From Candidatus Krumholzibacteriia bacterium (GTDB lineage: Bacteria > Krumholzibacteriota > Krumholzibacteriia > Krumholzibacteriales > Krumholzibacteriaceae), in contig JAPLKY010000205.1 of the NCBI GenBank assembly GCA_026387805.1, positions 1 to 35,901 on the forward strand: a DNA stretch of 35,901 nt. The letters run 5' to 3'. A program made the position numbers and the translations under genes. Under the pieces are notes generated by a model. It saw nothing but the letters and a program-made list of their open reading frames with translations, was not told the DNA's origin and did no database searches. This document shows positions 4,208 through 28,414 of this stretch, piece by piece (position 1 is the first letter of the stretch; each line of letters starts with the position of its first letter).

Positions 4208-4310
4208 GTCGCGTGCTTGGACATCACCGGCTCGAAGGGGACAAATCGATCTCTGCAAATAGGGTTAAATCAGAAGCAATTCTCTGACTCCAGATGCGAG
4301 GGTGTTGCAT

Positions 4311-5933: not shown

Positions 5934-6043
5934 CCCTGGTCTCTTTTGATTAGATCGGGTTCCTGGAAGCCCGGCTGTCGAGCCGGTGCATATCCCTTTT
6001 CCATGGTTCGAATAATTGATTCATCGTCAACGCCAATAAACAC

Positions 6044-6072
6044 TTGAAATCATTGATGAAATATGATACCAT
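6044..6072 (+). promoter_or_regulatory. sigma70-like promoter TTGAAA-N17-(TGa)TACCAT
   Basis: TTGAAA at 6044-6049, a 17-nt spacer, and extended -10 TGATACCAT ending at 6072. It sits in the AT-rich gap upstream of the 6144 gene. Confidence 0.35.
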
Positions 6073-6143
6073 GTTCCAAATAATTACTTAGGGGGATCTG
6101 AGGGGGTGATAGGTCGCGCAAGGCTAGAGCTATCTGTATCTTT

Positions 6144-6863
6144 ATGTCCAAATTAACAGGTCTTTTCGTCTTCATGCCGATCATCATTATTTTGGCGAGT
6201 GGGGTTCCGTCGCTTGCCCAAGCGCCGAACCAAGCCGCCGAAGAGAAACCCCCGATAAAAAAGCTAGCAGAGAACGTCTATCAAATCGGAAATATTATTG
6301 TTGATGGCAAGAAGAAGGAAATATCCTTCGGCGGCTGGGTCAATATGTCCGAGGGAATAGTCGAGCTCCTGGCGTGCGCGCCGGGAGGAAAGACGCACGA
6401 GAGCGTTCTTGTCTTCGACGTTGAGCCCTTTCATTTCCAAATAGCCCTTCTGCTCATGGGGCTGGAGTGCGGCGGCGGCCTGAAATACCAGGGGGATCCT
6501 GCCACGCCAAAGGGCGACCCCGTCGATATATTCGTCAAATGGACCGATCCGGGCAATAGCAAGACCGTGTCGGTGCGAGGCGAAGATCTCGTTTATGACA
6601 TTCCGAAGAAGCACGCCATGAAGCGCACCCATTGGATCTTTGCGGGATCGCGCGTTATCGATGGCGTATTCGCGGCTCAGGCCGAGAAATCTCTTGTGAC
6701 CACGTACCATGATCCGAACACGATCCTCGATAATCCGCTGCCGACGGGAGCCGACGATACGGTTTATGAGGCGAATCGCGCCGTCGTGCCTCCCGTGGGA
6801 ACGAAGGTCCTAGTAACGATCAAGCCTTACGAAAAGATAAGAGGTTCAAGAGAGCACCGTTAA
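6144..6863 (+). CDS. secreted hypothetical protein (possibly YdjY-domain-like)
   Basis: 239-aa ORF with signal peptide MSKLTGLFVFMPIIIILASGVPSLAQA and a weak RBS. The segment IVELLACAPGGKTHESVLVF resembles my recollection of YdjY-domain proteins; the family call is from memory only. Confidence 0.7.
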   Translation: MSKLTGLFVFMPIIIILASGVPSLAQAPNQAAEEKPPIKKLAENVYQIGNIIVDGKKKEISFGGWVNMSEGIVELLACAPGGKTHESVLVFDVEPFHFQIALLLMGLECGGGLKYQGDPATPKGDPVDIFVKWTDPGNSKTVSVRGEDLVYDIPKKHAMKRTHWIFAGSRVIDGVFAAQAEKSLVTTYHDPNTILDNPLPTGADDTVYEANRAVVPPVGTKVLVTIKPYEKIRGSREHR

Positions 6864-6902
6864 GCGGCTTTGTGGGGGCAATTCGAACTGGGGGACAATC
6901 GG

Positions 6903-8105
6903 ATGAAATGCTGCGCATCTTTGGTGGGGGCGATTCTTCTCTGTGCTTCTTGGGTTTCGTTTTCTTCCGCGGGCGAGGCGACGCAGGACAGCGTCGAGCT
7001 CTCGATCAGGAATGAAGGCCAGACTGCCATAGCGCAAGGGATCGATTGGCTGCTGAAACAGCAGATGCCGGACGGTTCCTGGGGCTCCTATCCGGCGGTG
7101 ACAGCGCTCGCGGTTTCCTCGATTCTGAAGGGTCCTTTCGGATACGATCGGAACAATTCCCTGCAAATCGCGAAGGGTCTCTCGTATATCATGAGCTGCG
7201 TGAAGCCCGATGGTTCGATCGCGATCGACAACATGCCCGGCTACAACACGTCCGTCTGTCTGATGGCCCTGGAGGACGCCGGCGATGAAACCTATCACGA
7301 GACGATTCTCAACGCGCGGAATTTTCTGATTCAGCTCCAGTTCGACGAGAGCGACGGGTATCAGCCCGATAGCTGCTTCTATGGCGGAATCGGCTACGGC
7401 CAGGACGGCCGGCCGGATCTGTCGAACATACAGTGGGCTCTGGAGGCCCTGAAGGCGTCGGAGGATCTTGCGAAGCATTCAGAATTCGACATGAAGCAGA
7501 GGGACGATGCGGCGCCGGCGAACAATCTGCCCACTGCGGGGGAATCGGGAAAAGGGCTCTTCTGGGATAAGGCGATTCTGTTCCTTGAAAGGTGTCAGAA
7601 TCTGAAAAGCGTGAACAAACAGGAATGGGCCGGCGCGGACGGCGGATTCGTCTACTATCCGGATTACAGCAAAGCAGGCGGCACGACGTCCTATGGAAGC
7701 ATGACCTACGCGGGGCTCAAGAGCTTCATCTATGCGGACATCGAAAAGGACGATCCGCGGGTCCAGGCGGCATTCGATTGGATACGAAAGAACTATACCG
7801 TGGATGAGAATCCGGAAATGGGGCTGCAAGGTCTGTATTACTACTACCATACAATGGCCAAGGCGCTCAATGTCTACGGAGACAGTGTAATCCAGGACGA
7901 TAAGGGGGCGATTCATAACTGGAGGGAAGATCTGATCGTAAAACTCTGCTCTCTCCAGAACGAGGAAGGGTATTGGGTAAATTCGAATGGTCGCTGGTGG
8001 GAGAACAACAAGGTGCTCGTGACTTCGTACTGCATTCTCGCGCTGGAAGAAACGCTCGGGCACGGCGGACATTCTGCCACGATGGAGCTGAAGGAGGGCA
8101 ATTGA
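6903..8105 (+). CDS. secreted prenyltransferase/squalene-oxidase-repeat (alpha/alpha toroid) protein, probably non-catalytic
   Basis: ATG 6903 with GGGGGA 7 nt upstream; the track start 6870 is less likely. Signal peptide MKCCASLVGAILLCASWVSFSSAGE. QW-like repeats KQQMPDGSWG, VKPDGSIAI, GADGGFVYY, LQNEEGYWV. No DxDD or DDxxD motif seen. Confidence 0.85.
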   Translation: MKCCASLVGAILLCASWVSFSSAGEATQDSVELSIRNEGQTAIAQGIDWLLKQQMPDGSWGSYPAVTALAVSSILKGPFGYDRNNSLQIAKGLSYIMSCVKPDGSIAIDNMPGYNTSVCLMALEDAGDETYHETILNARNFLIQLQFDESDGYQPDSCFYGGIGYGQDGRPDLSNIQWALEALKASEDLAKHSEFDMKQRDDAAPANNLPTAGESGKGLFWDKAILFLERCQNLKSVNKQEWAGADGGFVYYPDYSKAGGTTSYGSMTYAGLKSFIYADIEKDDPRVQAAFDWIRKNYTVDENPEMGLQGLYYYYHTMAKALNVYGDSVIQDDKGAIHNWREDLIVKLCSLQNEEGYWVNSNGRWWENNKVLVTSYCILALEETLGHGGHSATMELKEGN

Positions 8106-8106
8106 T

Positions 8107-11100
8107 ATGACTCGAAAGAGATTATTTGTAGTCATTGGGTTCGTTTGCCTGATGCTTGTCGGCATCGCAAGTTGGGCTCAAGACATATCTGAAAAGAAGG
8201 CGCTGGATCTTTATGACGAGTATACAATCGCCTTTCCTCCGCCTGTAGAGCCTTTGAACCCTGCTCCATTGATCAGCGAAATGGACAGGCCGGTTCTGCA
8301 AAGTCCTACGGGTGCGATTCTCGTTCGCACGATGCCGAGCAGCTTTGATCCTATTACCGGCTACCCGAAGCCGTATGCATGGCCGACAAGGAACTTCCCC
8401 ATTTGGGGAAATGTCGCGGGAGGGGTCGCTCCGTATACCTATGTATGGAATTTCGGCGACGGTTCGCCGAGTGTAAGCGGCGCTGCGGCAAATCCCAACT
8501 ACATCTATGCATACCACAGCTATAGCATCGTGGGAATATACTATGCGCAGCTCACGGTAACTGATGGAGACGGGGACACGAATTCTTCCGCCGTGCGCAT
8601 CGATGTCGCATTCGTCGATCAGGAGGTTCGCAAGAACGCGGCAATCGAGGACGGCCTTCGATATCTCTATTTGCACCAGGCTGCTAACGGCGCGTGGCAG
8701 GAGAGTTATTATGGTGCTTCTACAGCCACGGCCGTTGCTGCATTTGAGATTCATGGGCATTTTCCCATGAATGATCCCACGCAGGACATCTTTGCCGAAC
8801 GGGTTCAATTGGGTCTCAATTATCTCTTTTCAGCTCTCGTGACCCAGTCTATTGGCGTGCAGACGCATGGAAATCCCGATACCAACGGAAACGGCATCGG
8901 GATTCGTCCCAGCGGCAGTTATACAACGTATATTCATGGCCTCATGATGCTCGCAATAGCGAGCAGCAGAGATACCAATTCGATCACGACAACGGGGCCT
9001 GCCGGCGTTATCGGCAAGAAGTACAGGGATATTCTGGTCGATATGGCAGATCAGCTGGCATATTCTCAGGTCGAAACCGGGGGGCGTGGCGGTTGGAGAT
9101 ACGACATGAATAACGCCGACTATGGAAGCAGCGATAATTCCATTGTGCAATGGGCTTCCATTGGTCTTAAGGCGGCAGAAGCAAGCCCCTGGCTCATTCA
9201 TGCGCCCCAATTTGTGAAAGATGAACTGCTGCTCTGGATGAGTTCTTCGCAATGTGCGGATGGCGGTTTTGGTTACACGAGTTGTTCAGCGTATGGATCC
9301 AACGTGGGGCGCACCGGCTCGGGCATATACTCACTCTACTACCTCGGCGTTGACAAGAGCGATCCTCGGGTTACCGCTGCAATCAATTATCTCTGCTCTC
9401 GGTGGTTTGCAGGAGGTTACGGGGCGACCGCCGGCTCGGGCCAATTTCAATCAAACTTCTATGCCATGTATGCCGTAAAGAAAGCATTAGAAGACTATAT
9501 GATTCCTACAGTATGCAGCCCAAGCCGGAGCTGGAGAGACGATTATGAAAAGCATTTGATAAAAGATCTCACGAGTCCGAGCCCCTATAACGGTAATCAT
9601 CAAACTACGGATACCCCGAATGCAACAAATGATGGCGTCTGGCCATATTCCTACATCTATGGAGGAAACAATTACGGTAATACAATCTCCACTGGATTTG
9701 CTCTTCTCGTGCTTCTGCCGGGCGTAAGGCCGTGCGCGCCGGTACCGCAAATGACAATCAATCCACCTGAGGCATGTCCAAACACGGAAATCTGCTTTGA
9801 TGCGAGCGGCTCGCATCTTGATGGAGCGTGCACGAACGAAGAAATCGAACAGTGGCTATGGGATCTTGATGGCGATGGCACTTATGAAAGGAGCGGCCAG
9901 TTCGTCTGCAAGCCTGAAGGATACCCGCTTCCCAATGGCGAGACGCAGCACGATTACGAAGTGAAGCTCATGGTTATAGCTGGCGAGGCCGACAGCAACG
10001 TTACGTCGGGTACGGTCCATATCGGCTCCGAGGATCATCTGCCCATAGCCGTTTGCGGCGGTCCGTACACGGCGTGCGTGGGCGAGCCGATCTATTTGAA
10101 CGGCTGCCTCTCGTACGACCCCGATTCGGCATGTCTCGATGACGGCATCGTCGAGTACAGCTGGGATTTCGAACCCGATGGAGTCTGGGATCTTATAACA
10201 ACCGAATGCATACCGGACACGAGCCTCATCTACAATACTGAGGTCTATAAGTACATTCAACTTCGCGTGAGAGACAAGTTCGGATTGGTATCCGCTTCGA
10301 ACGGAGGGTTGGTTGAGGTATGGTCATCGCGCAAAGAGCTTTCGGTGACCGCTAATGATATTGTTTTCAATAACGTTGAGGGGTGCCCCTCCGTCGAGAT
10401 CTGCGCGACGATACACGCGGCGACGCAGGATCCATCGATCAGTGTTGAATCCGCGGTTGTGGATTTCTACTACGACGATCCGAGCGATCCCGCGAAACGG
10501 ATCGGGAGATTCAACACGCCGGTAATGCAAGACGGTGGGACGGTTGCATTCTGCGTAAATTGGGAGCCGCCCATCGAAGGGGATAGCATTTATGTGGTGG
10601 TCGATCCCAACCAACTCATCCGTGAGTGCGTCGAGACCGATAACATGGCGGTGAGGGTTTGGAATTGCCCGCCGGACACCTGTGTGGTGCAGCCGAATCT
10701 CTCTTTGATCGGCTATCGCACGGTGGACTATGCCGCCCCGCTGTGGAAGGTGCAGGTCGAGATACGCAACGCCGGCCCCGGGAAGGTTCAAAACGTGAAC
10801 GTGGTCATGAACGAGGAGATCGACTGGTTGACGATTCCGGATCCGAACTGCGGCTATAGCGAGATACTCGAAGGCGGTTTAAGCTGGGGCGACGATACGT
10901 ACACCTTCGATCTGACGAACCACCCGGGAGGGAGCTTCAACGTGTGGTTCGACGTGACGTATGAGGATTCCTGCCGCAATCAGTATCATGTGAGGCTCGA
11001 TCCCGAGTTCGATCCCACGAATACGGCGCAGACGGCGCCGGCGCTGTCCTTCAGGCTGGCGCAGAACTATCCGAACCCGTTCAATCCGAACACGACGATC

Positions 11101-11322
11101 AGCTACCAGATTCCCGTGAGGAGCATGGTGAATCTGAGCGTCTTCGACGTTTCGGGACGTCTGATTCGGACGCTGGTCAACGAGTACAACGAACCGGGTC
11201 TGTACGCCGCCCCGTGGGACGGGAAAGACAGTCGGGGTGTTTCGGTGGCCTCGGGGATCTATTTCTCCAAGCTTCAGGCCGGAAACTACAAGGAAACGAA
11301 GAGGATGGTGCTTTTGCGGTAA
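8107..11322 (+). CDS. giant secreted PKD + alpha/alpha-toroid + PKD x2 + CARDB-like protein with T9SS sorting domain
   Basis: AAGGAGGG RBS in the tail of the previous gene, with ATG 1 nt after its stop. Signal peptide present. PKD-like units: YTYVWNFGDGSP...LTVTDGDGD, WLWDLDGDG, YSWDFEPDG. Toroid repeats HQAANGAWQ, GGRGGWRY, QCADGGFGY. C-terminus NYPNPFNPNTTISY...GIYFSKL. Confidence 0.9.
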   Translation: MTRKRLFVVIGFVCLMLVGIASWAQDISEKKALDLYDEYTIAFPPPVEPLNPAPLISEMDRPVLQSPTGAILVRTMPSSFDPITGYPKPYAWPTRNFPIWGNVAGGVAPYTYVWNFGDGSPSVSGAAANPNYIYAYHSYSIVGIYYAQLTVTDGDGDTNSSAVRIDVAFVDQEVRKNAAIEDGLRYLYLHQAANGAWQESYYGASTATAVAAFEIHGHFPMNDPTQDIFAERVQLGLNYLFSALVTQSIGVQTHGNPDTNGNGIGIRPSGSYTTYIHGLMMLAIASSRDTNSITTTGPAGVIGKKYRDILVDMADQLAYSQVETGGRGGWRYDMNNADYGSSDNSIVQWASIGLKAAEASPWLIHAPQFVKDELLLWMSSSQCADGGFGYTSCSAYGSNVGRTGSGIYSLYYLGVDKSDPRVTAAINYLCSRWFAGGYGATAGSGQFQSNFYAMYAVKKALEDYMIPTVCSPSRSWRDDYEKHLIKDLTSPSPYNGNHQTTDTPNATNDGVWPYSYIYGGNNYGNTISTGFALLVLLPGVRPCAPVPQMTINPPEACPNTEICFDASGSHLDGACTNEEIEQWLWDLDGDGTYERSGQFVCKPEGYPLPNGETQHDYEVKLMVIAGEADSNVTSGTVHIGSEDHLPIAVCGGPYTACVGEPIYLNGCLSYDPDSACLDDGIVEYSWDFEPDGVWDLITTECIPDTSLIYNTEVYKYIQLRVRDKFGLVSASNGGLVEVWSSRKELSVTANDIVFNNVEGCPSVEICATIHAATQDPSISVESAVVDFYYDDPSDPAKRIGRFNTPVMQDGGTVAFCVNWEPPIEGDSIYVVVDPNQLIRECVETDNMAVRVWNCPPDTCVVQPNLSLIGYRTVDYAAPLWKVQVEIRNAGPGKVQNVNVVMNEEIDWLTIPDPNCGYSEILEGGLSWGDDTYTFDLTNHPGGSFNVWFDVTYEDSCRNQYHVRLDPEFDPTNTAQTAPALSFRLAQNYPNPFNPNTTISYQIPVRSMVNLSVFDVSGRLIRTLVNEYNEPGLYAAPWDGKDSRGVSVASGIYFSKLQAGNYKETKRMVLLR
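10690..11322 (+). repeat. 633-nt 3' coding module, copy 1 (CARDB-like + T9SS domain)
   Basis: Aligns without gaps to 13949-14581. The encoded 210 aa differ at 14 positions (about 93% identity), whereas the N-terminal parts of the two proteins are only weakly similar. Confidence 0.9.
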
Positions 11323-11362
11323 CTATTGCTCCAGGCACGATAACCAGACGAAGGAGGAGGAG

Positions 11363-14300
11363 ATGAATAGGCGTAATTCGGGATCGGTACTCATCCTGCT
11401 CGTTGTGTTGCTCGCGCTGACGTGCGCGGTCACGGCGCAGGAGCGGATTACGGATCAGAAGGTCAAGAAGCTCTTCGACGAATACCAGGCTCTGACCAGC
11501 TCGCAGCCCGAGATCAATCCGCTTGGATTGAGCGTGCAAGAGGCGTGGAGCCAATTTCAAGCGTTAGACGAGGGGCCTCTCCACGTTCGAGTCATGCCGG
11601 GAACCTACATCGATAGCCAGGGCAAGCGGCAGCCGTATTGCTGGATCGGCCTCAATCAGACCGTGTGGGGCGCCGCGGGAGGCGGAGAAGCTCCCTACTC
11701 CTGGCAATGGGATTTCGGCGATGGTACGCCGCCGGCAACGGGGATTGCGGCAAATGCAAGCGAGGCCAGATATATTGCCGTGGATCATGCATATTCGCTC
11801 GCGGGCACGAGAACCGCGATACTCACGGTGACGGATAATCTCGGCGCGGTGGCGTCGAGATCCGTTCAGATCGATATCAGGGTGCTGCCCGATCCGACAG
11901 TCGATCTCGAGGTAAATGCGGCCATCGAAAAAGGCTTGCGGTGGCTCTATCTGAACCAATACCCGGAGGGTTATTGGCCCGATCAAGGGGACGATTACGT
12001 CTTCGGGGCAACCGGTGCGGCGGTTCTCGCGTTCGAGCTCAGAGGCCACCTTGCCGTTAATGACGTCAATGAGGATATCTATGCCGAACCTCTGCAGCGT
12101 GCGTTCGATTTTCTCATGAACTATTCCGTATACTACACATTGGGAAGTCCGGCATCCCAGAATTGTTTTGTCGATGGAAACTCGAACGGTCTGGGTGTCT
12201 ATTTCTATTCGGGGCTAACATACCATAACGGCCTCATTATGATGGCCATTGCCGCGAGCAGGGATCCGAATCAGGTCGCCACTACCGGAGCCGTCGCCGG
12301 TCACACATTCAGGGATATCCTGCAGGACATGTGCGATATGGCGGTATATGCTCAAGCGGAGAGTCCTCCCTACCGGGGTGGGTGGCGGTACTACGTCGCT
12401 CGGGGCGATGGCGATTCCGACAATTCAGCCGTTCAATGGCCGGTTCTTGCAATGATGGCAGCCGGCTGCGGCTGGGATATTCAGATCCCGGAATGTGTCA
12501 AGACCGAGTTGCGGTTTTGGGCTGAGTACAGTCAGTGCGGGAATGGCGGGTTCGGATACACGAGTCCCTGCGACTGGCCGAATATCGCGAAGACAGGGTC
12601 AGGGATGATCAGCCATGCCTTTCTCGGAACGCTGCCCGGAAACAGCAGCATAGTCAATGCGCTGAATTTCATTAATGCCAACTGGGGTAATGGGAGCGAT
12701 AACAACGGCTATTCCGAGCATCTTAACGGAAACATCTATGCGATGTATGCCTTGACGAAAGGCTGTCGAGAGCTGGTCGATGAAAACGGCGATCAGATTG
12801 ACCTGATTGGCGCGCACAACTGGTACGCGGAGTATCGGCTCCATCTCCTGAGCAATCCGACGTGGGGTCAGGCCGCCGATGGACACTGGTTTGCGCAATT
12901 CGGCTGGTGGTGGGATTTCGGGAGCGCGTTTTCCACGGCGACCGCAATGATGATTCTGAATCCGGAGACCGTTACGTGCCGTCGCCCCGTCGCCGTTGCC
13001 GTAGCCGAGCCGGATTCCAGTTGCGCTAACCAGCCGATCAAATTCGATGGTTCAGGATCGTATCATCAGGATTCGGAGAGGCTCATCACCTCATGGAAGT
13101 GGGACTTCAATGCCGAGGATGGGATTGACTGGGACCATCCGGATGCGGAGGGAGCCAGTGTTTGGAATCTGGCGGGATACGAGCTTCCTCCCGGCGAGGA
13201 CACCAAAGCGTACCAGGCAACCCTCAGGGTTACGGACAACTCCAGCCCGCAACAGGTCAGCGTCGCGACCGTCAGCGTGACGATCGGGACCGTGAATCAC
13301 GCTCCCGTTGCGTGCTTCCACTGTCCGTGCAGCGATGCTCCCTACACGGCGAGGGTCGGTCAGGAGATCATATTCGATGGGAGCTGTTCCTATGACCCGG
13401 ATTTCCTGTGCACCGCCGACAGCATTGTTGCGTGGGCGTGGGATCTCAACGGCGACGGTGTCTTCGACGATGCGACGACGCCTATCACGAGCTTCACGTG
13501 GAACTTCGAGTACAACGGACGCATCGGTCTCAGGGCGTGGGACACCCATGGCGCGCAATCCGAGGGGACCGCTTACGTGAGCGTTTGGACCTCGCACGCG
13601 GATCTGAGAATAGCTGCGGAAGATCTGCATTGCTCCTGCGGCTCATCCCTCGATCCGTGCGCGATAACCGCGCGCGTTCACTGCGACACCGATGATCCAT
13701 CGAAGGTGGTTGCGTCGGCATTGGTCAGGTTCTACGATGGAAATCCGAACGCGGGAGGCGTGCTGATCCATGAGACGACGCTGCAAAACTTGACGGGCGG
13801 CAGCGTCGAAGAGCTGTCGGTACCGTGGGTCAACCCCGATGGGCAGCCGCATGACATCTATGTCCTGGTAGATCCGAATCTGCGGGTGGAGGAGTGGGAC
13901 GAGACGAACAACGTTGCGATTGTCAGTTGCGGTAGAGTGTGCGATGAGCAGCCGAATCTCTCTTTGATCGGCTATCGCACGGTGGACTATGGCGCCCCGC
14001 TGTGGAAGGTGCAGGTCGAGATACGCAACGCCGGGCCGGGATTGGTCAGGAACGTGAACGTGGTCATGAACGAGGAGATCGACTGGTTGACGATTCCCGA
14101 TCCGAACTGCGGCTATAGTGAGATACCGGAGGGCGGATCGAGCTGGGGCGACGATACGTACACCTTCGATCTGACGAACCATCCGGGAGGAAGCTTCAAC
14201 GTGTGGTTCGACGTCACGTACGAGGATTCCTGCGGGAAATCGTACCACGTAAGGCTCGACCCCGAGTTCGATCCCGGGAAGACGGCGCAGACGGCGCCGA

Positions 14301-14581
14301 CGCTGTCCTTCAGGCTGGCGCAGAACTATCCGAACCCGTTCAATCCGAACACGACGATCAGCTACCAGATTCCCGTGAAGAGCATGGTGAATCTGAGCGT
14401 CTTCGACGTTTCGGGACGTCTGATTCGGACGCTGGTCAACGAGTACAACGAACCGGGTCTGTACGCCGCTCAGTGGGACGGGAAAGACAGCCGAGGCGTC
14501 TCGGTGGCCTCGGGGATCTATTTCTCCAAGCTCCAGGCCGGAAACTACAAGGACACGAAGAGGATGGTGCTGCTGCGCTAG
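11363..14581 (+). CDS. giant secreted PKD + alpha/alpha-toroid + PKD-like + CARDB-like protein with T9SS sorting domain (paralog of 8107-11322)
   Basis: ATG 11363 preceded by AAGGAGGAGGAG. The track start 11237 would overlap the previous gene and lacks a signal peptide. Signal peptide MNRRNSGSVLILLVVLLALTCAVTAQE. PKD-like YSWQWDFGDGTP...LTVTDNLG. Toroid repeats NQYPEGYWP, YRGGWRYY, QCGNGGFGY. T9SS C-terminus. Confidence 0.9.
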   Translation: MNRRNSGSVLILLVVLLALTCAVTAQERITDQKVKKLFDEYQALTSSQPEINPLGLSVQEAWSQFQALDEGPLHVRVMPGTYIDSQGKRQPYCWIGLNQTVWGAAGGGEAPYSWQWDFGDGTPPATGIAANASEARYIAVDHAYSLAGTRTAILTVTDNLGAVASRSVQIDIRVLPDPTVDLEVNAAIEKGLRWLYLNQYPEGYWPDQGDDYVFGATGAAVLAFELRGHLAVNDVNEDIYAEPLQRAFDFLMNYSVYYTLGSPASQNCFVDGNSNGLGVYFYSGLTYHNGLIMMAIAASRDPNQVATTGAVAGHTFRDILQDMCDMAVYAQAESPPYRGGWRYYVARGDGDSDNSAVQWPVLAMMAAGCGWDIQIPECVKTELRFWAEYSQCGNGGFGYTSPCDWPNIAKTGSGMISHAFLGTLPGNSSIVNALNFINANWGNGSDNNGYSEHLNGNIYAMYALTKGCRELVDENGDQIDLIGAHNWYAEYRLHLLSNPTWGQAADGHWFAQFGWWWDFGSAFSTATAMMILNPETVTCRRPVAVAVAEPDSSCANQPIKFDGSGSYHQDSERLITSWKWDFNAEDGIDWDHPDAEGASVWNLAGYELPPGEDTKAYQATLRVTDNSSPQQVSVATVSVTIGTVNHAPVACFHCPCSDAPYTARVGQEIIFDGSCSYDPDFLCTADSIVAWAWDLNGDGVFDDATTPITSFTWNFEYNGRIGLRAWDTHGAQSEGTAYVSVWTSHADLRIAAEDLHCSCGSSLDPCAITARVHCDTDDPSKVVASALVRFYDGNPNAGGVLIHETTLQNLTGGSVEELSVPWVNPDGQPHDIYVLVDPNLRVEEWDETNNVAIVSCGRVCDEQPNLSLIGYRTVDYGAPLWKVQVEIRNAGPGLVRNVNVVMNEEIDWLTIPDPNCGYSEIPEGGSSWGDDTYTFDLTNHPGGSFNVWFDVTYEDSCGKSYHVRLDPEFDPGKTAQTAPTLSFRLAQNYPNPFNPNTTISYQIPVKSMVNLSVFDVSGRLIRTLVNEYNEPGLYAAQWDGKDSRGVSVASGIYFSKLQAGNYKDTKRMVLLR
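13949..14581 (+). repeat. 633-nt 3' coding module, copy 2
   Basis: See 10690-11322. Same length and same reading frame. Confidence 0.9.
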
Positions 14582-14627: not shown

Positions 14628-14657
14628 TTGACGGCAGCATGTAACTTATGATAGGAT
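14628..14657 (+). promoter_or_regulatory. sigma70-like promoter TTGACG-N18-(TGa)TAGGAT
   Basis: TTGACG at 14628-14633, an 18-nt spacer, and TGATAGGAT ending at 14657. It lies about 60 nt upstream of the small-peptide start, in a 135-nt gap after the 11363-14581 stop. Confidence 0.4.
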
Positions 14658-14716
14658 ATTAGTATTAAATCAGGGGGACCATGTCTTTTGTAGGGCGATC
14701 CTTAGGGGAGGGTTTC

Positions 14717-14848
14717 ATGGAAAAGGAAAAGAAAGCGAAAGGAGCGACCGCGAAAGCCGCTCCGCGCAAGTACTCGAAACCGAAGGTCAAGAAGCACGAA
14801 AATCTGAAGGAGATTACGCTTCTTTCCTTCACTCCTCCCGGTGAATAG
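14717..14848 (+). CDS. 43-aa candidate RiPP precursor peptide (lasso-type leader spacing, 8-aa core)
   Basis: Below the track's 60-aa cutoff. ATG 14717 to TAG 14846-14848 encodes MEKEKKAKGATAKAAPRKYSKPKVKKHENLKEITLLSFTPPGE. GGGGAGGG at 14705-14712 serves as RBS. Y19/P22/V24/T34 match the spacing of the YxxPxL...T(-2) leader motif. It sits directly upstream of a PqqD-like gene. Confidence 0.55.
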   Translation: MEKEKKAKGATAKAAPRKYSKPKVKKHENLKEITLLSFTPPGE

Positions 14849-14900
14849 GGCTCTCTTCAGAGCTTCGATTTTCCGGGCTCTATTGCACGCGTAATGAGAA

Positions 14901-14942
14901 CTCCGAGGGGATGCGGAAGCATCCCCTCGGGGATTCATTTCT
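14901..14942 (+). terminator. strong stem-loop (possible attenuator/partial terminator) between peptide and RRE genes
   Basis: CCGAGGGGATGC (14903-14914), GGAA loop, GCATCCCCTCGG (14919-14930): a perfect 12-bp GC-rich stem followed by GGATTCATTTCT. Confidence 0.45.
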
Positions 14943-14955
14943 GGAGGGGATCGGT

Positions 14956-15216
14956 GTGCTCAGAGTGAGCGATAGAGTCGTCTATCGCGAGATAGATGAC
15001 AAGATTGTTTTGATCAATCTGGATTCGGGATTCTACTACTCGCTGAATGAAGTGGGATGCTTCATTTTCAACAGGATCCTGAAGAGCAAAGAGGTCGGCG
15101 ATATTCTCGATGAGATCGAGAGCACCTTCGAGGTATCCCAGAGAGAGGCGCGGGAAGATCTTGACGGATTCGTGGAATCCCTGCGAAGGGAAAAGATCAT
15201 CCTCGCCAACGGTTAG
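14956..15216 (+). CDS. PqqD-family protein (RiPP recognition element-like)
   Basis: GTG 14956 with GGAGGGG 6 nt upstream. The track ATG 14911 lies inside the hairpin stem. The sequence RVVYREIDDKIVLINLDSGFYYSLNEVGCFIFNRI...DILDEIESTFEVSQREAREDLDGFVESLRREKII follows the PqqD pattern of beta strands followed by a helical LNxxG segment. Confidence 0.75.
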   Translation: MLRVSDRVVYREIDDKIVLINLDSGFYYSLNEVGCFIFNRILKSKEVGDILDEIESTFEVSQREAREDLDGFVESLRREKIILANG

Positions 15217-15240
15217 CAAACCGATGGAACAATCGACTCG

Positions 15241-16224
15241 ATGGACACCCAGCGCTTGCGCTTTCAAACGATAATCCCTCTGCAGAAGTATTCTCTCATT
15301 CTCAGAAGCGATAGCGAGAAGGTTATCGACGCGGTCCGCGGCTGGGTCGATCACGACATCGCGCACTATCATACCATCGATGAATCCTCCCCGCGAGTTC
15401 CGATCGAGGTCGAGCTCTTTACGAGCCGAAAGCCCCCGGGGATCGACAAACCGACCCATCTCGATCACATGGCTACTTTTGAAGACATCAAATTCTATTC
15501 GGACAACGGCCATATCATTTTGACCTTTGGCGACACGTCTTTCGTGAAGATAGATCCGAAGAAAGGAATTGCGAGAGGATTCGTCTCCGGGGAGCACCTG
15601 GAGTCTCCCTGGATTCTCTCTCATCGGATATTCTACGTTCCGGTCCTCGAGATCATTCGAGGCATGGGAGTCTGCTATATCCACGCCGGCTGCGTTTGCC
15701 GGGGAGATAAATGCATATTGCTCTGCGGGGGGAGCGGGCATGGGAAGTCGACGTTGACCTATGCGCTCGCGAGGTCGCGATACTCGTACCTGTCGGATGA
15801 TGCCGTTTTTGTCCAGAACCACAGCCGCGGCATCGAGATATTCTCGTTTCCCGAGAAGATAAAGCTCGACACGAACAGCCGGTCGTTCTTCCCCGAATTC
15901 GACGGATTCGAGAAATCTCCGGGGAAGATGGAGATCCCTCTGAAGCTGACGAAGATCAAGAATATCGCCGTGAGCGGAAGCCCCCATGCCCTGATATTCA
16001 CGCGGATCATCCCGGCGGAGAAGAGCGAGTTGGTCCCGCTCCCCCGGAGCGAGGCGATGCTTCGATTGATCGGTCAGAGCATCTCTCTCACGAGCAAGCG
16101 GAGCATCGAAAGCAACCTCGATCTGCTCATGAAGCTCACCGGATCGTTGAAGAGCTTCGAGCTGAAGATGGGCGGCACTTTTGAGGGCGTGCCCGAGCTG
16201 ATCGAAGAGACCCTCTTCGCGTAG
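15241..16224 (+). CDS. HPr-kinase-like (HprK-related) P-loop kinase
   Basis: 327 aa. P-loop LLCGGSGHGKSTLTYAL followed by YLSDD, as in the HPr kinase/phosphorylase C-terminal domain. Adjacent to the PqqD-like gene. Confidence 0.75.
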   Translation: MDTQRLRFQTIIPLQKYSLILRSDSEKVIDAVRGWVDHDIAHYHTIDESSPRVPIEVELFTSRKPPGIDKPTHLDHMATFEDIKFYSDNGHIILTFGDTSFVKIDPKKGIARGFVSGEHLESPWILSHRIFYVPVLEIIRGMGVCYIHAGCVCRGDKCILLCGGSGHGKSTLTYALARSRYSYLSDDAVFVQNHSRGIEIFSFPEKIKLDTNSRSFFPEFDGFEKSPGKMEIPLKLTKIKNIAVSGSPHALIFTRIIPAEKSELVPLPRSEAMLRLIGQSISLTSKRSIESNLDLLMKLTGSLKSFELKMGGTFEGVPELIEETLFA

Positions 16225-20700: not shown

Positions 20701-20772
20701 AACGTGTGGAGCGTTCTGAACCCACCGGGATGCCGAACGTGCCGGCGCTTCTCCCTTGCAGAGACAAACGCC

Positions 20773-22935
20773 ATGAAGAGGTCATTTCTCATTATCGCGT
20801 CCGCCGCCATGGTTCTGGGAACGGCATACCCGGATGTTTCCGCGGGCGTCTTCGAGTCGGGCGATTTCCGGCCCGCGCTCTGCATCATCAGGGAACCCGA
20901 AGACGGTTCCCTCTCGAAGACGCGGGAAGCGCTGGCGAGGTGCGGCGTCCGTGCATTGCACGTATTTCCTCCGAGGTTGATCTTCGGACGTTTTCCGTAC
21001 GGATTCGATGAGGCGAGATTGGCCGCGCTGCACGTTGAAATAGCGTGGTCGCCCGATGACGTCGCGACGAAAGACGTCGATCCCCTCATCGCGCGCGTCA
21101 TCCACGAGCTGTTTCGCCAGGAAGAGACCTCGTCGGCTTTCGATGCATCTCCGGCGCCCCCGATGGATGACCTCCTCCTGGAGGTTCCAGCCGGCGTTCG
21201 CGACGCGCAGGCGTCGCATGGATCCCGGATGGGTGTTTCTTCCGAGCTCCTCGATCGCGGGATAGAGCAGAACAGCGAATTCATGATCGGTACGGTGCTG
21301 GTGAACGTCATATTCCCCGAGAGCGCGGGAGGGAGCGAAGATTGGACGGACGATGAGCTGGCGGGGGCTATGAGCGGCATCGCGTTGAGTCTATCCCAGT
21401 ATCAACGATGCGCACCGCTCGCCGATTCTCTGCGATTGGACTTCATCTACAACTACTATACGCGAGTTCCCGTTTCGATCGAGCCGATCGAGGGGAACCG
21501 GAATACCGACCCCGTTTGGATGGGGGAGGCGCTGCAATACCTCGGGTACACGAACGACATGTGGAAGACGCACGCCTTGAATAACGACACGAGGATTCAG
21601 TTCGGGGCCGACTGGGTCTTCACGGCATTTGTCGTCGATGCGAGCTTCAATGGCTGCTGGCAGGGACCGGCGGGGTACTACGCCTACGGCTATCTCGGCG
21701 GGCCGCTGATGGTGATTCCGTACCCGACATGCAGCTGGACCAGCCAGGATGGTTTCGCCCATATCTTCGTTCACGAGGCGAGTCATATCTTCTGGTCGCT
21801 CGATGAGTATCTCAAAGCAGGATTCGTATGCGCGGACAGCTCGGGCTATCTGAGAGTTCCCACGAGAAACACCTACTATAAGCCGTGCGAGGATCCGCTG
21901 CAGCCGTGCATCATGAATAACGCGCCTCTTGTGTCGCCTCTTCCGATCTGCGCCTATACGCTCGGGCAGGTGGGACTCGCGGATGCGAACGGAGACGCTG
22001 TTCCCGATATCTATGAGGTGCCGCCCGAATGGAGCGCCGTCGATATCCGGCAGGCGGGCGGCGACACCATATTCGACGATCTTCTCGAAGTGAGGGCGAC
22101 GGTAGTGAACGAGGCCCTGCCCAACAGAAATCCGCATCATAGTCCGACGCAAATGGTCGACTATGCGCCGTGGCTCGTTCGCGGGACGTATCGCATCGGC
22201 TCGGGGCCGGAGCAGGAAATGCTTCCCGCGGACGGCGCATGGGACGAATCGAGCGAGGAGCTCGATTTTCTCATAAGCGGTTTTTCGCCTCGAGAGAACG
22301 ATCTCTATCTAAAAGTATATAATTGCGCCGGCTTGGGAACCGAAATAGAGCGGCGGATATACTATGTGGCGACCTTGCTCCAGAGCTACTCCATCAGCCC
22401 CGGAGAGACATATATTGAGGTCTCCTGGCAGCTCGCCCAGATTTCCGAGCAGACGGCGTTTGCCGTGCTCCGGTCGGAAGATCCGCGCGGCGAATATCGC
22501 GCGCTCCCCGATGCTCGAATCGATCGGGACGGCCTGTCATTTACATTCAGAGACGAGAGCTGCCGGCGGGGGACCGAGTATCGGTATCGCGTGCGGATCG
22601 AAGAAGGGAAGGAGCGCAGAATACTCTTTGAAACGGGGGGCGCCATGCTTCCCGCCCTGGCCCTGCGCCTCTATCAGAATTATCCCAATCCATTCAATCC
22701 GACGACGGAGATACGCTTCTCCTTGCCCGAAGGCTGCGACGTCGCCCTCGACGTGTACGATAGCGAGGGCAATTGGATCTCGCGGCTCGCCGCCGGATAT
22801 CGAGAGGGCGGGCTGCATGCGGTTCCGTGGGATGGCCACGACAAAAACGGGCGCCAGATGAGCTCCGGAGTATATTTCTGCCGGCTCAAAGCAGGGAAGA
22901 AGGAAGTTTCGAGCAAAATGGTGCTCTTGAGATAG
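20773..22935 (+). CDS. secreted zinc metallopeptidase-like protein (M64-like HExxHxxxxLxDEY) with T9SS sorting domain
   Basis: ATG 20773 gives signal peptide MKRSFLIIASAAMVLGTAYPDVSAG; the track start 20704 does not. Motif FVHEASHIFWSLDEY. C-terminus NYPNPFNPTTEIRF...GVYFCRL. Confidence 0.8.
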   Translation: MKRSFLIIASAAMVLGTAYPDVSAGVFESGDFRPALCIIREPEDGSLSKTREALARCGVRALHVFPPRLIFGRFPYGFDEARLAALHVEIAWSPDDVATKDVDPLIARVIHELFRQEETSSAFDASPAPPMDDLLLEVPAGVRDAQASHGSRMGVSSELLDRGIEQNSEFMIGTVLVNVIFPESAGGSEDWTDDELAGAMSGIALSLSQYQRCAPLADSLRLDFIYNYYTRVPVSIEPIEGNRNTDPVWMGEALQYLGYTNDMWKTHALNNDTRIQFGADWVFTAFVVDASFNGCWQGPAGYYAYGYLGGPLMVIPYPTCSWTSQDGFAHIFVHEASHIFWSLDEYLKAGFVCADSSGYLRVPTRNTYYKPCEDPLQPCIMNNAPLVSPLPICAYTLGQVGLADANGDAVPDIYEVPPEWSAVDIRQAGGDTIFDDLLEVRATVVNEALPNRNPHHSPTQMVDYAPWLVRGTYRIGSGPEQEMLPADGAWDESSEELDFLISGFSPRENDLYLKVYNCAGLGTEIERRIYYVATLLQSYSISPGETYIEVSWQLAQISEQTAFAVLRSEDPRGEYRALPDARIDRDGLSFTFRDESCRRGTEYRYRVRIEEGKERRILFETGGAMLPALALRLYQNYPNPFNPTTEIRFSLPEGCDVALDVYDSEGNWISRLAAGYREGGLHAVPWDGHDKNGRQMSSGVYFCRLKAGKKEVSSKMVLLR

Positions 22936-23033: not shown

Positions 23034-24305
23034 TCACCTGTTTCTTTCGGGATCCAGCATTCGCGGACCGATGATCTCGCTCCGTACCAAGAAACCCATG
23101 AAGAGAGTGACGAGAAGCACCTTCATCAGGACATAGAGGCCGTTGAGGTGCAGCCTTATTCTCTGCTTGACCCCGCTTGTTCTATAATTGAAGTAGAGAC
23201 GGGTCAGAGTGACCCGATCGGGGAAAACGAGTCGATAGAGATACAGGGCCCGGTGCCTGAAGCCCTTTCTGAGATAGAGCTCCATCGCGAACTCATGCGT
23301 GTCGCGAAACGGCAGCCACTCCCAGACGAGCGCGCGCGGGTAGTATGTGCTCAGTATGAATCTTTTCATGAAGAAGCCGGGCGCGCGTCCGACCGCCGTC
23401 CCCGAGCGCGATAATCGTCCGAAGAGAGACTCGCACAGGCTCGTGGCAAGGGTCATCTCGCGATCCGTATTGCATCGGGCCGACCAAAGAATGACTTCGT
23501 TCCAATCGGATTCCTTGAACCTCCGGGCCATTCCCTTCATCTCCGCGAGACTGCGAAACGCCAGGAAACACTTGTACGCGGCGTGCATGCCCATATACCA
23601 GAAGGCATCGGGAGGGCTCAGCGTTCGTATCGTCGTGCCCCCCACCTGAAGAGGAATCGCCCGCTCTCTCAATCGCGCCTCATCGGGAATCGCATGGTCC
23701 ATCGTGGGATCGAGGAGATCCCAATGCAGCTCGACGACGCTGTCGAGGTTCTCGCCGCGGCAGTAGATATAGTGAAAGTGGTACGCGCGGTATTCCTCGG
23801 CCGAGCGGCGGCCTGAACGCAAGAAATATCCATTCTTCTGGAGGACCCGCTGACATCGTTCGAGATCGGATCGCGGAACGAGGATATCGATGTCTTTCGA
23901 GACTCTGACGCCGGGATCGTTGTAGAGAGAATATGCGAGAGGAATGCCCTTGATAACGATAGGCGCAACGGCTTCCTTCTCCATGTCGCGCACGAGCTCG
24001 ATGAGCTCATACTCCTTCTTCGTAAATCGCGCCTGAGAGAGAAAATATTCTCCTTCGAGGATCCCGCGCACGTCTTCCGGCAAACCCTCGAACGTCCCGA
24101 GAGTCTTGAAGAAGCGGGCGGTCGCCGCGAGATACATGTGGTGCCCCGCGAGCTTCATGAATCGCCGCCAATCGAAGACGCTTCCGAGCATCGACGCGGC
24201 CTCATTTCTCAGCTCTTCATCAGGCGGCTCTTGCCGCATCGACGAATCCGCAACGAGAATGAGGAGCCTGTCTTCGTTCGTCAACATGAGGGCTGTTTTG
24301 CGCAT
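23034..24305 (-). CDS. nucleotidyltransferase family protein (PF14907/NTP_transf_5-like)
   Basis: 423 aa. IVIKGIPLAYSLYNDPGVRVSKDIDILVPRSDLERCQRVLQKNGY and VVELHWDL are the hallmark segments of this uncharacterised NTase family, as I recall it. Confidence 0.7.
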   Translation of the reverse strand: MRKTALMLTNEDRLLILVADSSMRQEPPDEELRNEAASMLGSVFDWRRFMKLAGHHMYLAATARFFKTLGTFEGLPEDVRGILEGEYFLSQARFTKKEYELIELVRDMEKEAVAPIVIKGIPLAYSLYNDPGVRVSKDIDILVPRSDLERCQRVLQKNGYFLRSGRRSAEEYRAYHFHYIYCRGENLDSVVELHWDLLDPTMDHAIPDEARLRERAIPLQVGGTTIRTLSPPDAFWYMGMHAAYKCFLAFRSLAEMKGMARRFKESDWNEVILWSARCNTDREMTLATSLCESLFGRLSRSGTAVGRAPGFFMKRFILSTYYPRALVWEWLPFRDTHEFAMELYLRKGFRHRALYLYRLVFPDRVTLTRLYFNYRTSGVKQRIRLHLNGLYVLMKVLLVTLFMGFLVRSEIIGPRMLDPERNR

Positions 24306-24326: not shown

Positions 24327-25211
24327 CTATTTTCTGAGATAATGCCTCACGCCCACCTTGGGATCCAGCTCGAACGGTCCCTCGTAGCCGTTTGTACCGC
24401 TCGGGCTGAAGGTCGTGGAGACCGTGCCCTTGTCGTTCTTGAAAATGATATCGGCGCCCTGGAGCTCCCAGAACGATTCGTTCGCGTGGTTGCTCGACAG
24501 CTTGTACCCCTTGCCGGCCACGTATTGGGTCGTGAGCCCGATATCGCAGATGAACTCGTTCACGTCCTTGTTGTCGCGCTTGCAGCGGCCGAACTTCCAC
24601 GTGCCCGCGACTTTCTGAACGGCCTCGGGAATCGGCGAGGTTGCGACCGCCCCCGGCTTCTTCCCTTTCCTCAGCTCGACGAGCCTGTCGCTCAGCTCCT
24701 TTTCGCGGGCGTTCAGCGACTCGAGGCGCGTCGCGATCTCGACGAGCTCCTTGTTTGCCACGGGAATGCGATCCGTCTGGACGAAACGCTTGTACGCCTC
24801 GCTCAAATTCATGAGATGAGAGAGCCAGAAATGGTATTCGGGGTCCTCCGATTCCGGGTCTCCGTGGATCGGCTTGTTGTCGTCGCCTCGCGCGAGCAAA
24901 TCGCGCAAGGCGAGAACATACGCCAACTCGGTGAGCTGCTCCTTCGAGACGCTCAAGAGAATGCCCGATTTCTTATTCGGCTCCGGCTTATTCGTTTCAT
25001 AGCTCTTGCCCGTGTAATCCCTGCCGATATCCAGAACGCATCTCTCCGGATCGGCGAGTCGATAGTAGTACTTGAGCTCATCCTGGACGTCGTCTTCCCT
25101 CGCGTCGAGCCACTGGCTATCCTGCTGGCCGGCCAAAGCGCCGCAAGGACGGGGAACGAGGAGATACGCCGCCGCGAGAGCGCACGCGATGATAACGAGC
25201 CGCTTGTTCAT
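24327..25211 (-). CDS. secreted hypothetical protein with central coiled-coil-like segment
   Basis: AAAGGGGGG RBS and signal peptide MNKRLVIIACALAAAYLLV. Balanced K/E/D-rich composition, in contrast to the R/L/A-rich antisense ORF 24138-25217. Confidence 0.75.
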   Translation of the reverse strand: MNKRLVIIACALAAAYLLVPRPCGALAGQQDSQWLDAREDDVQDELKYYYRLADPERCVLDIGRDYTGKSYETNKPEPNKKSGILLSVSKEQLTELAYVLALRDLLARGDDNKPIHGDPESEDPEYHFWLSHLMNLSEAYKRFVQTDRIPVANKELVEIATRLESLNAREKELSDRLVELRKGKKPGAVATSPIPEAVQKVAGTWKFGRCKRDNKDVNEFICDIGLTTQYVAGKGYKLSSNHANESFWELQGADIIFKNDKGTVSTTFSPSGTNGYEGPFELDPKVGVRHYLRK

Positions 25212-27489: not shown

Positions 27490-27765
27490 GGGTACCTCCT
27501 CAGTGCACAGGAAACGACCCGAATTTGTAAGGCGTTGTCGTCTGGTGGGATCGGCGCGACCCCCTGTCGGTCTCGGAGCACCCCGGTATCGGGGTCGAAC
27601 CGAGCCCCCTCTCGGGCCCTGCGCCGGGCGGTGCCACCCTATAAGCCCTACCTGCTTTTTTATACAGCGGCCGGCGGGAAAAGTGCCGAGGGGGCGACTA
27701 GAATTATAGAATAGCCGCGATCCTAGCGAAATGTCGACGGCGGTGGCCACGCCCACCCCTCGAAC

Positions 27766-28134
27766 CTACTTATCGACTTCTGGATTCTCGGGCAATTCGA
27801 GCAGCTTGATGTCTTCGAGGTCGATGTCGCGGGATGCGGCCCTTTTCGAAGCGATGAGGTCGCTTTTGGAAGCCACATAAAAAGGCTGGCTCTGATACTT
27901 CATGGTTTGACGATTATCCCATGCTTGCCGGAAGCTCAAGCCCGGGGTCGATGTCTGCACATCGATACGAACCTTATCCTTGAAAACCGTGATTTCGTTC
28001 GAGAGGAGCTCTTTTTCGGTTATCAACGTCGCCCTCGGCACGCCGTAGAGAATGGCAGCCACCCCGCCGATCACTACGTACCGCACGTCATGCTTTTGAA
28101 ATGATGCGAATACGTCTTTGAGTCTGTTCAGCAT
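27766..28134 (-). CDS. nucleotidyltransferase-fold protein (MNT/AbiEii-like), catalytic DxD region apparently missing
   Basis: The N-terminus ...HDVRYVVIGGVAAILYGVPRAT is typical of small NTases. However, the expected DxD right after it is replaced by LITEKELLSNE. The tail RIDVQTSTPGLSFRQAW...ASKRAASRDIDLEDIKLL is family-like. Confidence 0.6.
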   Translation of the reverse strand: MLNRLKDVFASFQKHDVRYVVIGGVAAILYGVPRATLITEKELLSNEITVFKDKVRIDVQTSTPGLSFRQAWDNRQTMKYQSQPFYVASKSDLIASKRAASRDIDLEDIKLLELPENPEVDK

Positions 28135-28291
28135 CTTTCTTGTCCGGCAAGTTCGGGTTCAACTCGAGCGCGAGATCCGTGAAGGATACGAAAACATCCA
28201 TCCGTTCCTCGAGGGAGAGCGAGCGAAACCAGAGCGCTTTCGCCTCCGGCGTCTCATCGGCCCGACTATGGGATATCTTGTGGTTCATCAC
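28088..28291 (-). CDS. small partner protein of the NTase-fold gene
   Basis: 67 aa. KALWFRSLSLEERMDVFVSFTDLALELNPNL...KDAEQTQRRIRIISKA resembles small proteins I recall next to such NTases. It overlaps the downstream gene by 47 nt. Confidence 0.5.
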   Translation of the reverse strand: MMNHKISHSRADETPEAKALWFRSLSLEERMDVFVSFTDLALELNPNLPDKKDAEQTQRRIRIISKA

Positions 28292-28344
28292 CCTTGATTA
28301 TACATGCGGGGCCGGTGCGCATAAAGGATTAAAATGATCCGGAC

Positions 28345-28414
28345 GAGGAGGTCACAATTTGTGACCTCCTCCGACCAAACTTGAAGTCACAATATGCAAC
28401 ATCAAGTTTGTAAC
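28345..28414. repeat. composite B+A palindrome unit U1
   Basis: B is GAGGAGGTCACAATTTGTGACCTCCTC (28345-28371). After an 8-nt gap, A is CTTGAAGTCACAATATGCAACATCAAG plus TTTGTAAC (28380-28414). On the minus strand it reads VTNLMLHIVTSSLVGGGHKL*, like the centre of an ORF6N protein. Confidence 0.8.

Follow-up and report, generated by a model that had tools for sequence, protein, structure and literature searches.

What becomes of a peptide that carries the leader of a lasso-peptide precursor when no enzyme that could close a lasso ring is encoded beside it? The question is raised by a 43-residue open reading frame (ORF) on contig JAPLKY010000205.1 of a Candidatus Krumholzibacteriia bacterium, of which the whole stretch of 35,901 nucleotides was analysed (hereafter, the window). 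The ORF is followed directly by genes for a PqqD-like protein and an HPr-kinase-like P-loop protein, and a preliminary description of this DNA regarded the three as an orphan unit of the family of peptides that are made by ribosomes and modified after translation (RiPPs), embedded in a locus of surface proteins of the type IX secretion system (T9SS). Two fates were offered there for the peptide, namely closure into an 8-residue ring without a tail through its terminal Glu, or modification as a linear Ser/Thr substrate of the kinase. The evidence presented below fits the linear substrate best. The window probably holds part of a lasso-derived, cyclase-less RiPP pathway for a short linear phosphorylated peptide, and the system is a Gram-negative variant of the chemistry of the Linear Polyphosphorylated Peptides (LPPs). 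It is not categorically new, and the earlier statement that such a unit belongs to no characterised RiPP class has been overtaken: the enzyme logic without a cyclase is that of the LPPs, by now described and in part characterised (Popov et al., Nat Commun, May 2026, PMC13381572), and the kinase type was characterised in 2023 (Duan et al., PMC10368454).

The translation of the small ORF is MEKEKKAKGATAKAAPRKYSKPKVKKHENLKEITLLSFTPPGE, exactly as first claimed. Its layout is that of a leader reaching to about T34 or L35, with Y19-x-x-P22-x-V24-x-x-H27-x-x-L30, and a core of (L)LSFTPPGE; the spacing reported earlier for Y19, P22, V24 and T34 was confirmed. A gene of 43 residues escapes standard gene-calling cut-offs, and the reality of this one is established by its homologues: a word-indexed search gave 27 clusters of them, and a profile search, run over 1.84 billion representative proteins, gave 33 at 50% identity. 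Though real, the peptide family is rare. When 23 homologues are aligned, Y19, P22, K26, E28, N29, L30, K31, I33, T34, L35, L36, S37, F38 and P41 are invariant, and the conserved motif reads Y-x-x-P-x-[VLM]-x-K-H-E-N-L-K-E-I-T-L-L-S-F-T-P-P, with a tail of variable sequence behind it. At the DNA level, where seven loci supplied ten copies, each invariant residue is written with two to four different codons, and codon pairs differ by 503 synonymous and only 188 nonsynonymous changes. Judged by these codons, the ORF is a translated gene under purifying selection, far beyond what chance would produce. The preliminary description is upheld in this: the small ORF is a genuine precursor gene with a leader of the lasso type, YxxPx[LV]...T, that would feed a PqqD protein and an HPr-kinase-like enzyme.

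The pattern of conservation also points to the residue that may be modified. After the Lys/Glu-rich N-terminal stretch, only the last 0-5 residues vary freely, with GE, GN, SD, TE, TS, AK, GS, PTK, GR, GK, GH, EN, AS, N, G and HSRRH all found as tails. By contrast, the position three residues after the conserved Thr is almost always Ser or Thr among the 33 divergent clusters, even where the surrounding core differs (ITLTSF, ITALSF, ITLFTGF, ITGGTGGS), whereas the position of Thr39 may be T, N, S or A. Ser37 is therefore the best candidate for a phosphate acceptor. Acceptance at a C-terminal Ser, in the manner of paeninodin, was considered and rejected, as the C-terminus of the family is unconserved and is Glu in the window peptide. 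Comparison of the peptide with the sequences of the PDB returned ribosomal-protein noise only, a full-text literature search gave no match to the peptide sequence and no paper on this family of peptide, PqqD protein and kinase, and the two papers on RRE-Finder do not mention kinases.

The first of the two genes that follow encodes, as had been proposed, a PqqD-family protein: the match to PF05402 has E=4.3e-16 and 59.4 bits, well above the gathering cut-off of 23.4. The lasso-specific PqqD models match less fully (1.2e-12, 47.8 bits, below their cut-offs of 80 and 70), and the best relatives of solved structure are the lasso B1 proteins TbiB1 (9e-10), TfuB1 (8e-6) and PbaB1 (7e-5), followed by LppB (5e-3). 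A direct BLASTP comparison with BsfB1, the recognition protein of a phosphorylated lasso peptide system in Bradymonas sediminis, gave no alignment; a match to BsfB1 was obtained with a broad profile, built by iteration from every PqqD-like ORF collected, within the close family and beyond (E=8.6e-25 in a search space of four sequences). The YxxPx[LV] and Thr elements of a lasso-type leader thus occur alongside a discrete PqqD protein, and binding of the one by the other is predicted.

The second gene encodes a P-loop protein that has the sequence GGSGHGKST, as first described. Its scores lie under the curated cut-offs of the family models: Hpr_kinase_C (PF07475) gives 16.2 bits against a cut-off of 33.3, TIGR00679 gives 17 against 240, and TIGR04352 (HprK-related kinase A) and TIGR04249 (ScmC) give 40.8 and 18.1 against equivalog cut-offs of 200 and 125. 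Similarly, the precomputed Pfam label is ScmC (PF27840), with hits marked weak or faint, and phmmer found no HprK match at E<1 among PDB sequences. A profile built from 30 sequences matched HprK/P (1jb1) with E=0.003, over the segment from Walker A to the DD pair only. The AlphaFold2 model (pLDDT 91.2) was matched by Foldseek to phosphoenolpyruvate carboxykinases (PEPCK; E about 1e-7, TM-score 0.45-0.52) and to HprK/P (3tqf; E=2.6e-6, target TM-score 0.57). HprK/P and PEPCK share one fold.

A further link is with BsfK of B. sediminis, which phosphorylates core Ser3 of its substrate in a reaction greatly accelerated by BsfB1 (Duan et al. 2023, PMC10368454). The window protein has the entire eight-residue BsfK motif, H148-G163-G166-G168-K169-S170-D186-D187, with identical residue numbers; mutagenesis found H148, G163, K169, S170, D186 and D187 to be important in BsfK, while G166A and G168A were near wild-type (PMC10368454). 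BLASTP aligns residues 126-204 with 126-203 of BsfK without offset (E=1e-7), and hhalign gives a probability of 96.3% and E=1.9e-9 over 179 columns. Among 30 homologues of the window kinase, the invariant positions are H148, G163, S165, G166, G168, K169, S170, T171, S185, D186 and D187. The homologues, which range from 34 to 89% identity, come from metagenomes and metagenome-assembled genomes, including those of Krumholzibacteriota and Fermentibacteria.

The gene content of related loci (designated L001, L002 and so on) shows what the unit is normally found with. In every relative with enough flanking sequence the PqqD gene lies ahead of the kinase gene, and near the unit there is a block of four genes, encoding a Transglut_core3 protein (B2), an NTP_transf_5 nucleotidyltransferase, an ABC ATPase and an ABC-2 permease. 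At L009, L011 and L092 the arrangement is contiguous and co-directional, in the order B2, NTP_transf_5, ABC, ABC2, (peptide), PqqD, kinase and a 743-residue BNR protein. The Transglut_core3 proteins of the relatives pass the model for lasso B2 peptidases, NF033537, with 39.6-43.3 bits against a cut-off of 33, and have retained the Cys and His found at the aligned positions of BsfB2; the exporter consists of separate ABC_tran and ABC2_membrane genes of the DrrA/DrrB type. The window retains one member of this block, an NTP_transf_5 gene whose product is 62% identical, end to end, to that of the L002 cluster. This gene and a hairpin discussed below are two elements that the preliminary description did not contain. 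Pfam scans of all plausible genes in the window found no Asn synthase, Transglut_core3 or ABC transporter, so that the reported lack of a cyclase, protease and exporter in the 35.9 kb is borne out; the labels "orphan" and "stand-alone" are not, because the relatives carry a B2 peptidase, an NTP_transf_5 enzyme and an ABC-2 exporter and the window itself keeps NTP_transf_5. No S26/SipW-type peptidase was found among the scanned window genes, nor among the Pfam-annotated genes of L001, L002, L004 and L006.

Upstream of the window NTP_transf_5 gene, where relatives have B2, lies a gene (24327-25211, minus strand) for a 294-residue secreted protein with a signal peptide, a weak Inh-like match at its C-terminus and no homologue in the related loci. 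It was considered as a replacement for the B2 peptidase and rejected, as it shows the weak Inh-like match only and no homology to peptidases.

From this gene content, the conservation, the catalytic residues and the motif spacing, all of which are observed, we infer the following chemical steps. The PqqD protein would bind the precursor through Y19-x-x-P22-x-V24, judging by homology, and would hand it to the BsfK/LppK-like kinase, which would phosphorylate the invariant Ser37, the third residue after Thr34, once or repeatedly; the motif spacing and the identity of the catalytic residues point to this step. The NTP_transf_5 enzyme would then probably add a sugar or a nucleotide-derived group to the phosphate, by analogy with pseudomycoidin, and this is the weakest step of the scheme. 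In the relatives, the lasso B2 cysteine peptidase would cut the leader after T34 or after L35, and the DrrAB-type ABC-2 pump would export (L)LSFTPPxx. No macrolactam ring would be formed. Given that the window has neither peptidase nor pump, the organism would either encode these elsewhere or process the peptide differently.

Several observations weigh against this pathway. The window NTP_transf_5 gene lies about 7 kb downstream of the unit and on the opposite strand, while in the relatives it is adjacent, and tblastn with the proteins of the relatives found no homologue of B2, ABC or ABC2 in the 35.9-kb window. The kinase scores under every curated family cut-off. LppN, the NTP_transf_5 protein of the LPPs, was inactive in the heterologous LPP host, and the role of the family is unproven even there (PMC13381572). 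Which residue accepts the phosphate, how many phosphates are added and where the leader is cut are matters of prediction, and the last is ambiguous: the LPP rule would place Thr at -1 and make Ser core residue 3, while the rule for lasso B2 peptidases puts Thr at -2, which makes Ser core residue 2 and not 3. Finally, the core of 7-12 residues is nearly invariant, in contrast to the variable LPP cores of 35-200 residues, and so tiny and constant a core may mean a different kind of product or role. The missing genes and the displaced, inverted NTP_transf_5 gene could alternatively mark the window copy as a decaying or incomplete remnant that has lost B2 and the exporter and yields no mature exported product, and an 83%-identical relative (L167) likewise has no ABC2 gene upstream of its peptide gene. 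This is unlikely, however, in that the four retained genes are all full length, every invariant residue of the peptide is kept, the NTP_transf_5 protein still aligns end to end at the identity given above, and the contig spans just 35.9 kb, so that the missing genes may be elsewhere in the genome. The same absence of peptidase and exporter would also suit a small intracellular protein whose phosphorylation, dependent on the recognition protein, acts as a signal or controls the surface-protein genes nearby; the C-terminal half, including the "core," is near-invariant, unlike typical RiPP cores, and resembles a protein-interaction motif, and HprK itself is a regulatory kinase. Against this, the relatives' unit adjoins genes for a leader peptidase and an ABC exporter that run in the same direction, the hallmark of a peptide that is processed and exported, and we regard a purely intracellular role as quite unlikely.

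The remaining alternatives concern the chemistry. The P-loop protein might not be a peptide kinase at all, and could catalyze another ATP-dependent step, as ScmC and HprK-related proteins may do. Its failure to reach the cut-offs of Hpr_kinase_C, TIGR04352 and TIGR04249, a precomputed label that refers to a family of unknown function, and best structural matches that are to PEP carboxykinases with modest TM-scores could all be read in this way. The co-linearity with BsfK and the conservation of all eight motif residues argue otherwise, as does the established similarity of the HprK/P and PEPCK folds, and this reading is very unlikely. Least credible of all is a true lasso precursor, whether with an 8-residue macrolactam through Glu8 or with a ring made by a cyclase encoded elsewhere, even though the YxxPx[LV]...T elements of the leader are spaced as in lasso precursors, the recognition protein resembles lasso B1 proteins most and the relatives have a bona fide lasso B2 peptidase. 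A ring through Glu8 is not a conserved feature: within the core, free variation is confined to the two C-terminal residues, and an acidic residue is missing altogether from many homologues, so that no Asp or Glu is conserved at core positions 7-9. The core also lies far below the length of known lasso peptides, and Leu as core residue 1 is atypical of them. An ORF of at least 400 residues with SGGxDS, used as a proxy for an asparagine synthetase-like cyclase, was not found within 10 kb in the close loci examined, and one such ORF turned up among 80 loci of the genome scan; Asn_synthase was absent from the Pfam-annotated gene lists of L001, L002, L004 and L006 and from a ten-ORF sample of distant loci. 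With the terminal Glu unconserved and no cyclase found within 10 kb in the close relatives, the macrolactam proposed in the preliminary description was rejected. The linear, phosphorylated peptide is the reading that the following paragraphs assume.

The flanks of the precursor gene hold several candidate signals (see table). The ribosome-binding site first described was found just ahead of the start codon. The promoter that had been proposed is also present, and it is weak evidence alone because chance would give 1.1 sites of its type in the 2-kb region, which has two; it was scored as a sigma-70-like site, and the promoter types of the host lineage itself may differ. In the spacer between the peptide and PqqD genes, a GC-rich hairpin with a T-rich tail is predicted, and stem-loops of differing sequence are likewise predicted in the same spacer of most relatives that were folded. 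This hairpin is a candidate partial terminator or attenuator that may set the ratio of precursor to enzymes.

Some relatives carry either two tandem copies of the precursor gene or a second paralogue with the motif [DE]KKENLK, in which Lys replaces His (the window peptide has KKHENLK). Only a single copy is present in the window, where a search for a further one found nothing.

The neighbourhood is indeed one of T9SS surface proteins, as had been stated, and part of it is conserved in the relatives. The protein encoded immediately after the kinase gene matches NF045728 (F510_1955 family glycosylhydrolase) with 186.5 bits against a cut-off of 175, and the gene after the kinase encodes a BNR protein in about 19 of 22 non-redundant relatives. 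Because of its closeness to the kinase gene and its conserved position, the BNR gene is probably part of the operon, and a conserved, probably co-transcribed T9SS beta-propeller protein suggests a cell-surface role for the peptide system. One could go further and imagine the exported, phosphorylated and possibly glycosylated heptapeptide LLS(P)FTPP as a dedicated ligand or partner of the BNR beta-propeller, in surface signalling or assembly specific to the FCB (Fibrobacterota-Chlorobiota-Bacteroidota) group, and as one member of a class widespread in Gram-negatives, in which a [Y/W]xxPxLxxH-leader peptide, an HprK-like kinase and a PqqD protein would occur without a cyclase and which would include the Gemmatimonadota loci with their quite different cores; this is a speculation to which we give little credence.

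The rest of the window is mixed. Five large T9SS-sorted proteins, two of them paralogous, stand between members of the cluster that adjoin one another in relatives, and the Pfam scans also show a TonB-dependent receptor. The pair of YdjY-domain and toroid genes recurs in L004 (7323-9290), where it has a copy of the precursor gene on either side. An island of mobile or defence-like character, mostly on the minus strand, occupies 27766-33181 and includes a DUF6036 nucleotidyltransferase in addition to the genes listed.

Features of the window, with precursor copies and leader-bearing loci in other genomes (positions in the latter are those of each locus)
Feature	Position	Strand	Basis or remark
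Sigma-70-like promoter candidate, TTGACG-18 nt-TAGGAT, TG extension before second hexamer	14628..14657	+	9/12 positions
Shine-Dalgarno-like GGGGAGGG	14705..14712	+	4 nt before ATG; read from sequence
Precursor peptide gene, 43 aa	14717..14848	+	Conservation, purifying selection
14-bp GC-rich hairpin with T-rich tail	14901..14932	+	Predicted; spacer between peptide and PqqD genes; z-score -3.95
Discrete RiPP recognition element (RRE), PqqD family, lasso B1-like, GTG start	14956..15216	+	PF05402
HprK/PEPCK-fold P-loop peptide kinase, BsfK/LppK-like, 327 aa	15241..16224	+	Catalytic residues, BsfK homology, AlphaFold2/Foldseek
T9SS-sorted BNR/sortilin-like beta-propeller protein, 743 aa	16252..18483	+	Starts 27 nt after kinase gene
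NTP_transf_5 nucleotidyltransferase, LppN/PsmN-type tailoring family	23034..24305	-	PF14907, E=2e-43
YdjY-domain protein and squalene-cyclase-like alpha/alpha-toroid protein	6144-6863, 6870-8105	+	Possible accessory pair, membership uncertain
Five large T9SS-sorted proteins (PKD, CARDB, fn3, prenyltransferase/squalene-cyclase-like toroid)	644-14581, 20704-22935	+	
764-aa protein, many ankyrin repeats, then metallo-beta-lactamase fold (Lactamase_B_3)	25462-27756	-	
HepT/MNT toxin-antitoxin pair	28442-29063		Within island
YhcG/DUF1016 PD-(D/E)XK nuclease	29600-30631		Within island
Two ORF6N-domain genes	30760-31353, 32564-33181		Within island
Second precursor paralogue ([DE]KKENLK), L001	2799-2915	-	
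Second precursor paralogue ([DE]KKENLK), L004	~7078-7170	+	
Second precursor paralogue ([DE]KKENLK), L011	~13520-13591	+	
Second precursor paralogue or tandem copies, L096	4818-5345		
Gemmatimonadota-type locus, L017	~9507	+	
Gemmatimonadota-type locus, L018	~9530	+	
Gemmatimonadota-type loci, L020, L023, L029, L031, L042	~9500		
Further Gemmatimonadota-type loci, L019, L024, L040, L047, L049 and others			

How does this system compare with those already known? Among curated models, the window kinase scores best with TIGR04352 and TIGR04249, which belong to uncharacterised cassettes and were far from reaching their equivalog cut-offs. These cassettes (TIGR04352 with a PqqD-related protein, and the SynChlorMet proteins ScmC/ScmD, TIGR04249/TIGR04248) resemble the present unit in pairing an HprK-like with a PqqD-like protein where lasso enzymes are lacking. 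Radical SAM enzymes, which form part of SynChlorMet cassettes, were not found here. The paeninodin and pseudomycoidin clusters of Bacillota, with K and N between B2 and D, share the order B2-N-transporter with the relatives of the window. Their kinases act on the linear precursor, and in pseudomycoidin N adds a hexose to the phosphate. They differ in having WxxP leaders and a cyclase, and in that their kinases target a C-terminal Ser, a rule that is inapplicable to the window peptide because it ends in Glu; nor is the C-terminus of the family conserved.

The Bsf system (bsfA,C,B1,B2,K,N,D; PMC10368454) is closer. The kinases are co-linear and identical in their catalytic motif, H148...D187; BsfK, stimulated by its recognition protein, phosphorylates a Ser close to where the core begins, a feature that would be shared; B1, B2 and N have counterparts in the relatives; and the leaders have Y-x-K-P-x-[LV]-x-x-H-x-x-L in common. 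Bsf differs in possessing a cyclase and a ring-forming core, G1...D8, in having Ile rather than Thr at -2, and in a distance from Tyr to Ser of 19 instead of 18 residues. Counted from Tyr, BsfA reads Y0 P3 L5 H8 L11 I15(-2) S19 and the window peptide reads Y0 P3 V5 H8 L11 T15 S18.

The closest match in motif spacing is with the LPPs of Bacillota, which are encoded by lppA-K-B-S-D-N clusters that contain no cyclase: the precursor LppA, the HprK-like kinase LppK, the discrete recognition protein LppB, the SipW-like peptidase LppS, an MsbA-like exporter and the NTP-transferase LppN (PMC13381572). In that system, LppK places up to four phosphates on core Ser3, cleavage occurs after T-1, and the recognition protein and LppN are listed as PqqD and NTP_transf_5, respectively (Supplementary Data 2, PMC13381572). 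The LPP leader consensus, YxxPxVLxHQxIxFETxxS, reads Y0 P3 V5 H8 I11 T15 S18 from Tyr, so that the window peptide agrees with it, at the same intervals, in Y, P, V, H, I/L, T and S, while L-10, Q-7, F-3 and E-2 are unmatched. Further likenesses are the set of precursor, discrete PqqD protein, HprK-like kinase and NTP_transf_5 without a cyclase, a Ser at +3 from Thr as the likely acceptor, and a cluster embedded in a cell-surface locus. The differences are equally clear. The relatives have a lasso B2 cysteine protease in place of the SpI/SipW-type serine peptidase (archaeal-type signal peptidase I) of the LPPs, and a two-component, DrrAB-like ABC-2 pump in place of the MsbA-like exporter; the window recognition protein resembles TbiB1 more than LppB; the neighbouring T9SS beta-propeller gene is conserved; and the hosts are candidate phyla of the FCB group, whereas LPPs were stated to be restricted to Bacillota (PMC13381572).

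A separate observation concerns Gemmatimonadota, where small ORFs lie directly upstream of genes for a distant HprK-like kinase and a PqqD protein. The leader takes the form W-x-x-P-x-L-x-x-H-[EA]-S-[LM]-x-x-L-[TS]-Q and is followed by a core of 30-45 residues with Cys, which gives the appearance of one more peptide family served by a kinase and an RRE but no cyclase. The W-x-x-P leader motif was matched 28 times, compared to 8 in reversed-sequence controls, mostly directly upstream of the kinase gene, and no Asn-synthase-like ORF was found within 10 kb at these loci. Cyclase-less systems of kinase and recognition protein with such leaders thus seem to be widespread outside Bacillota.

The final structure and function of the LPPs are unknown, and the present family extends their logic to Gram-negative candidate phyla of the FCB group. 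Because its core is tiny and almost invariant, its product should be far easier to predict, and to detect by mass spectrometry, than an LPP, and the conserved link with a T9SS beta-propeller protein provides a concrete handle on function. With a lasso B2 peptidase in the place of a signal peptidase, the system looks like a direct intermediate on the way from phosphorylated lasso peptides to LPPs.

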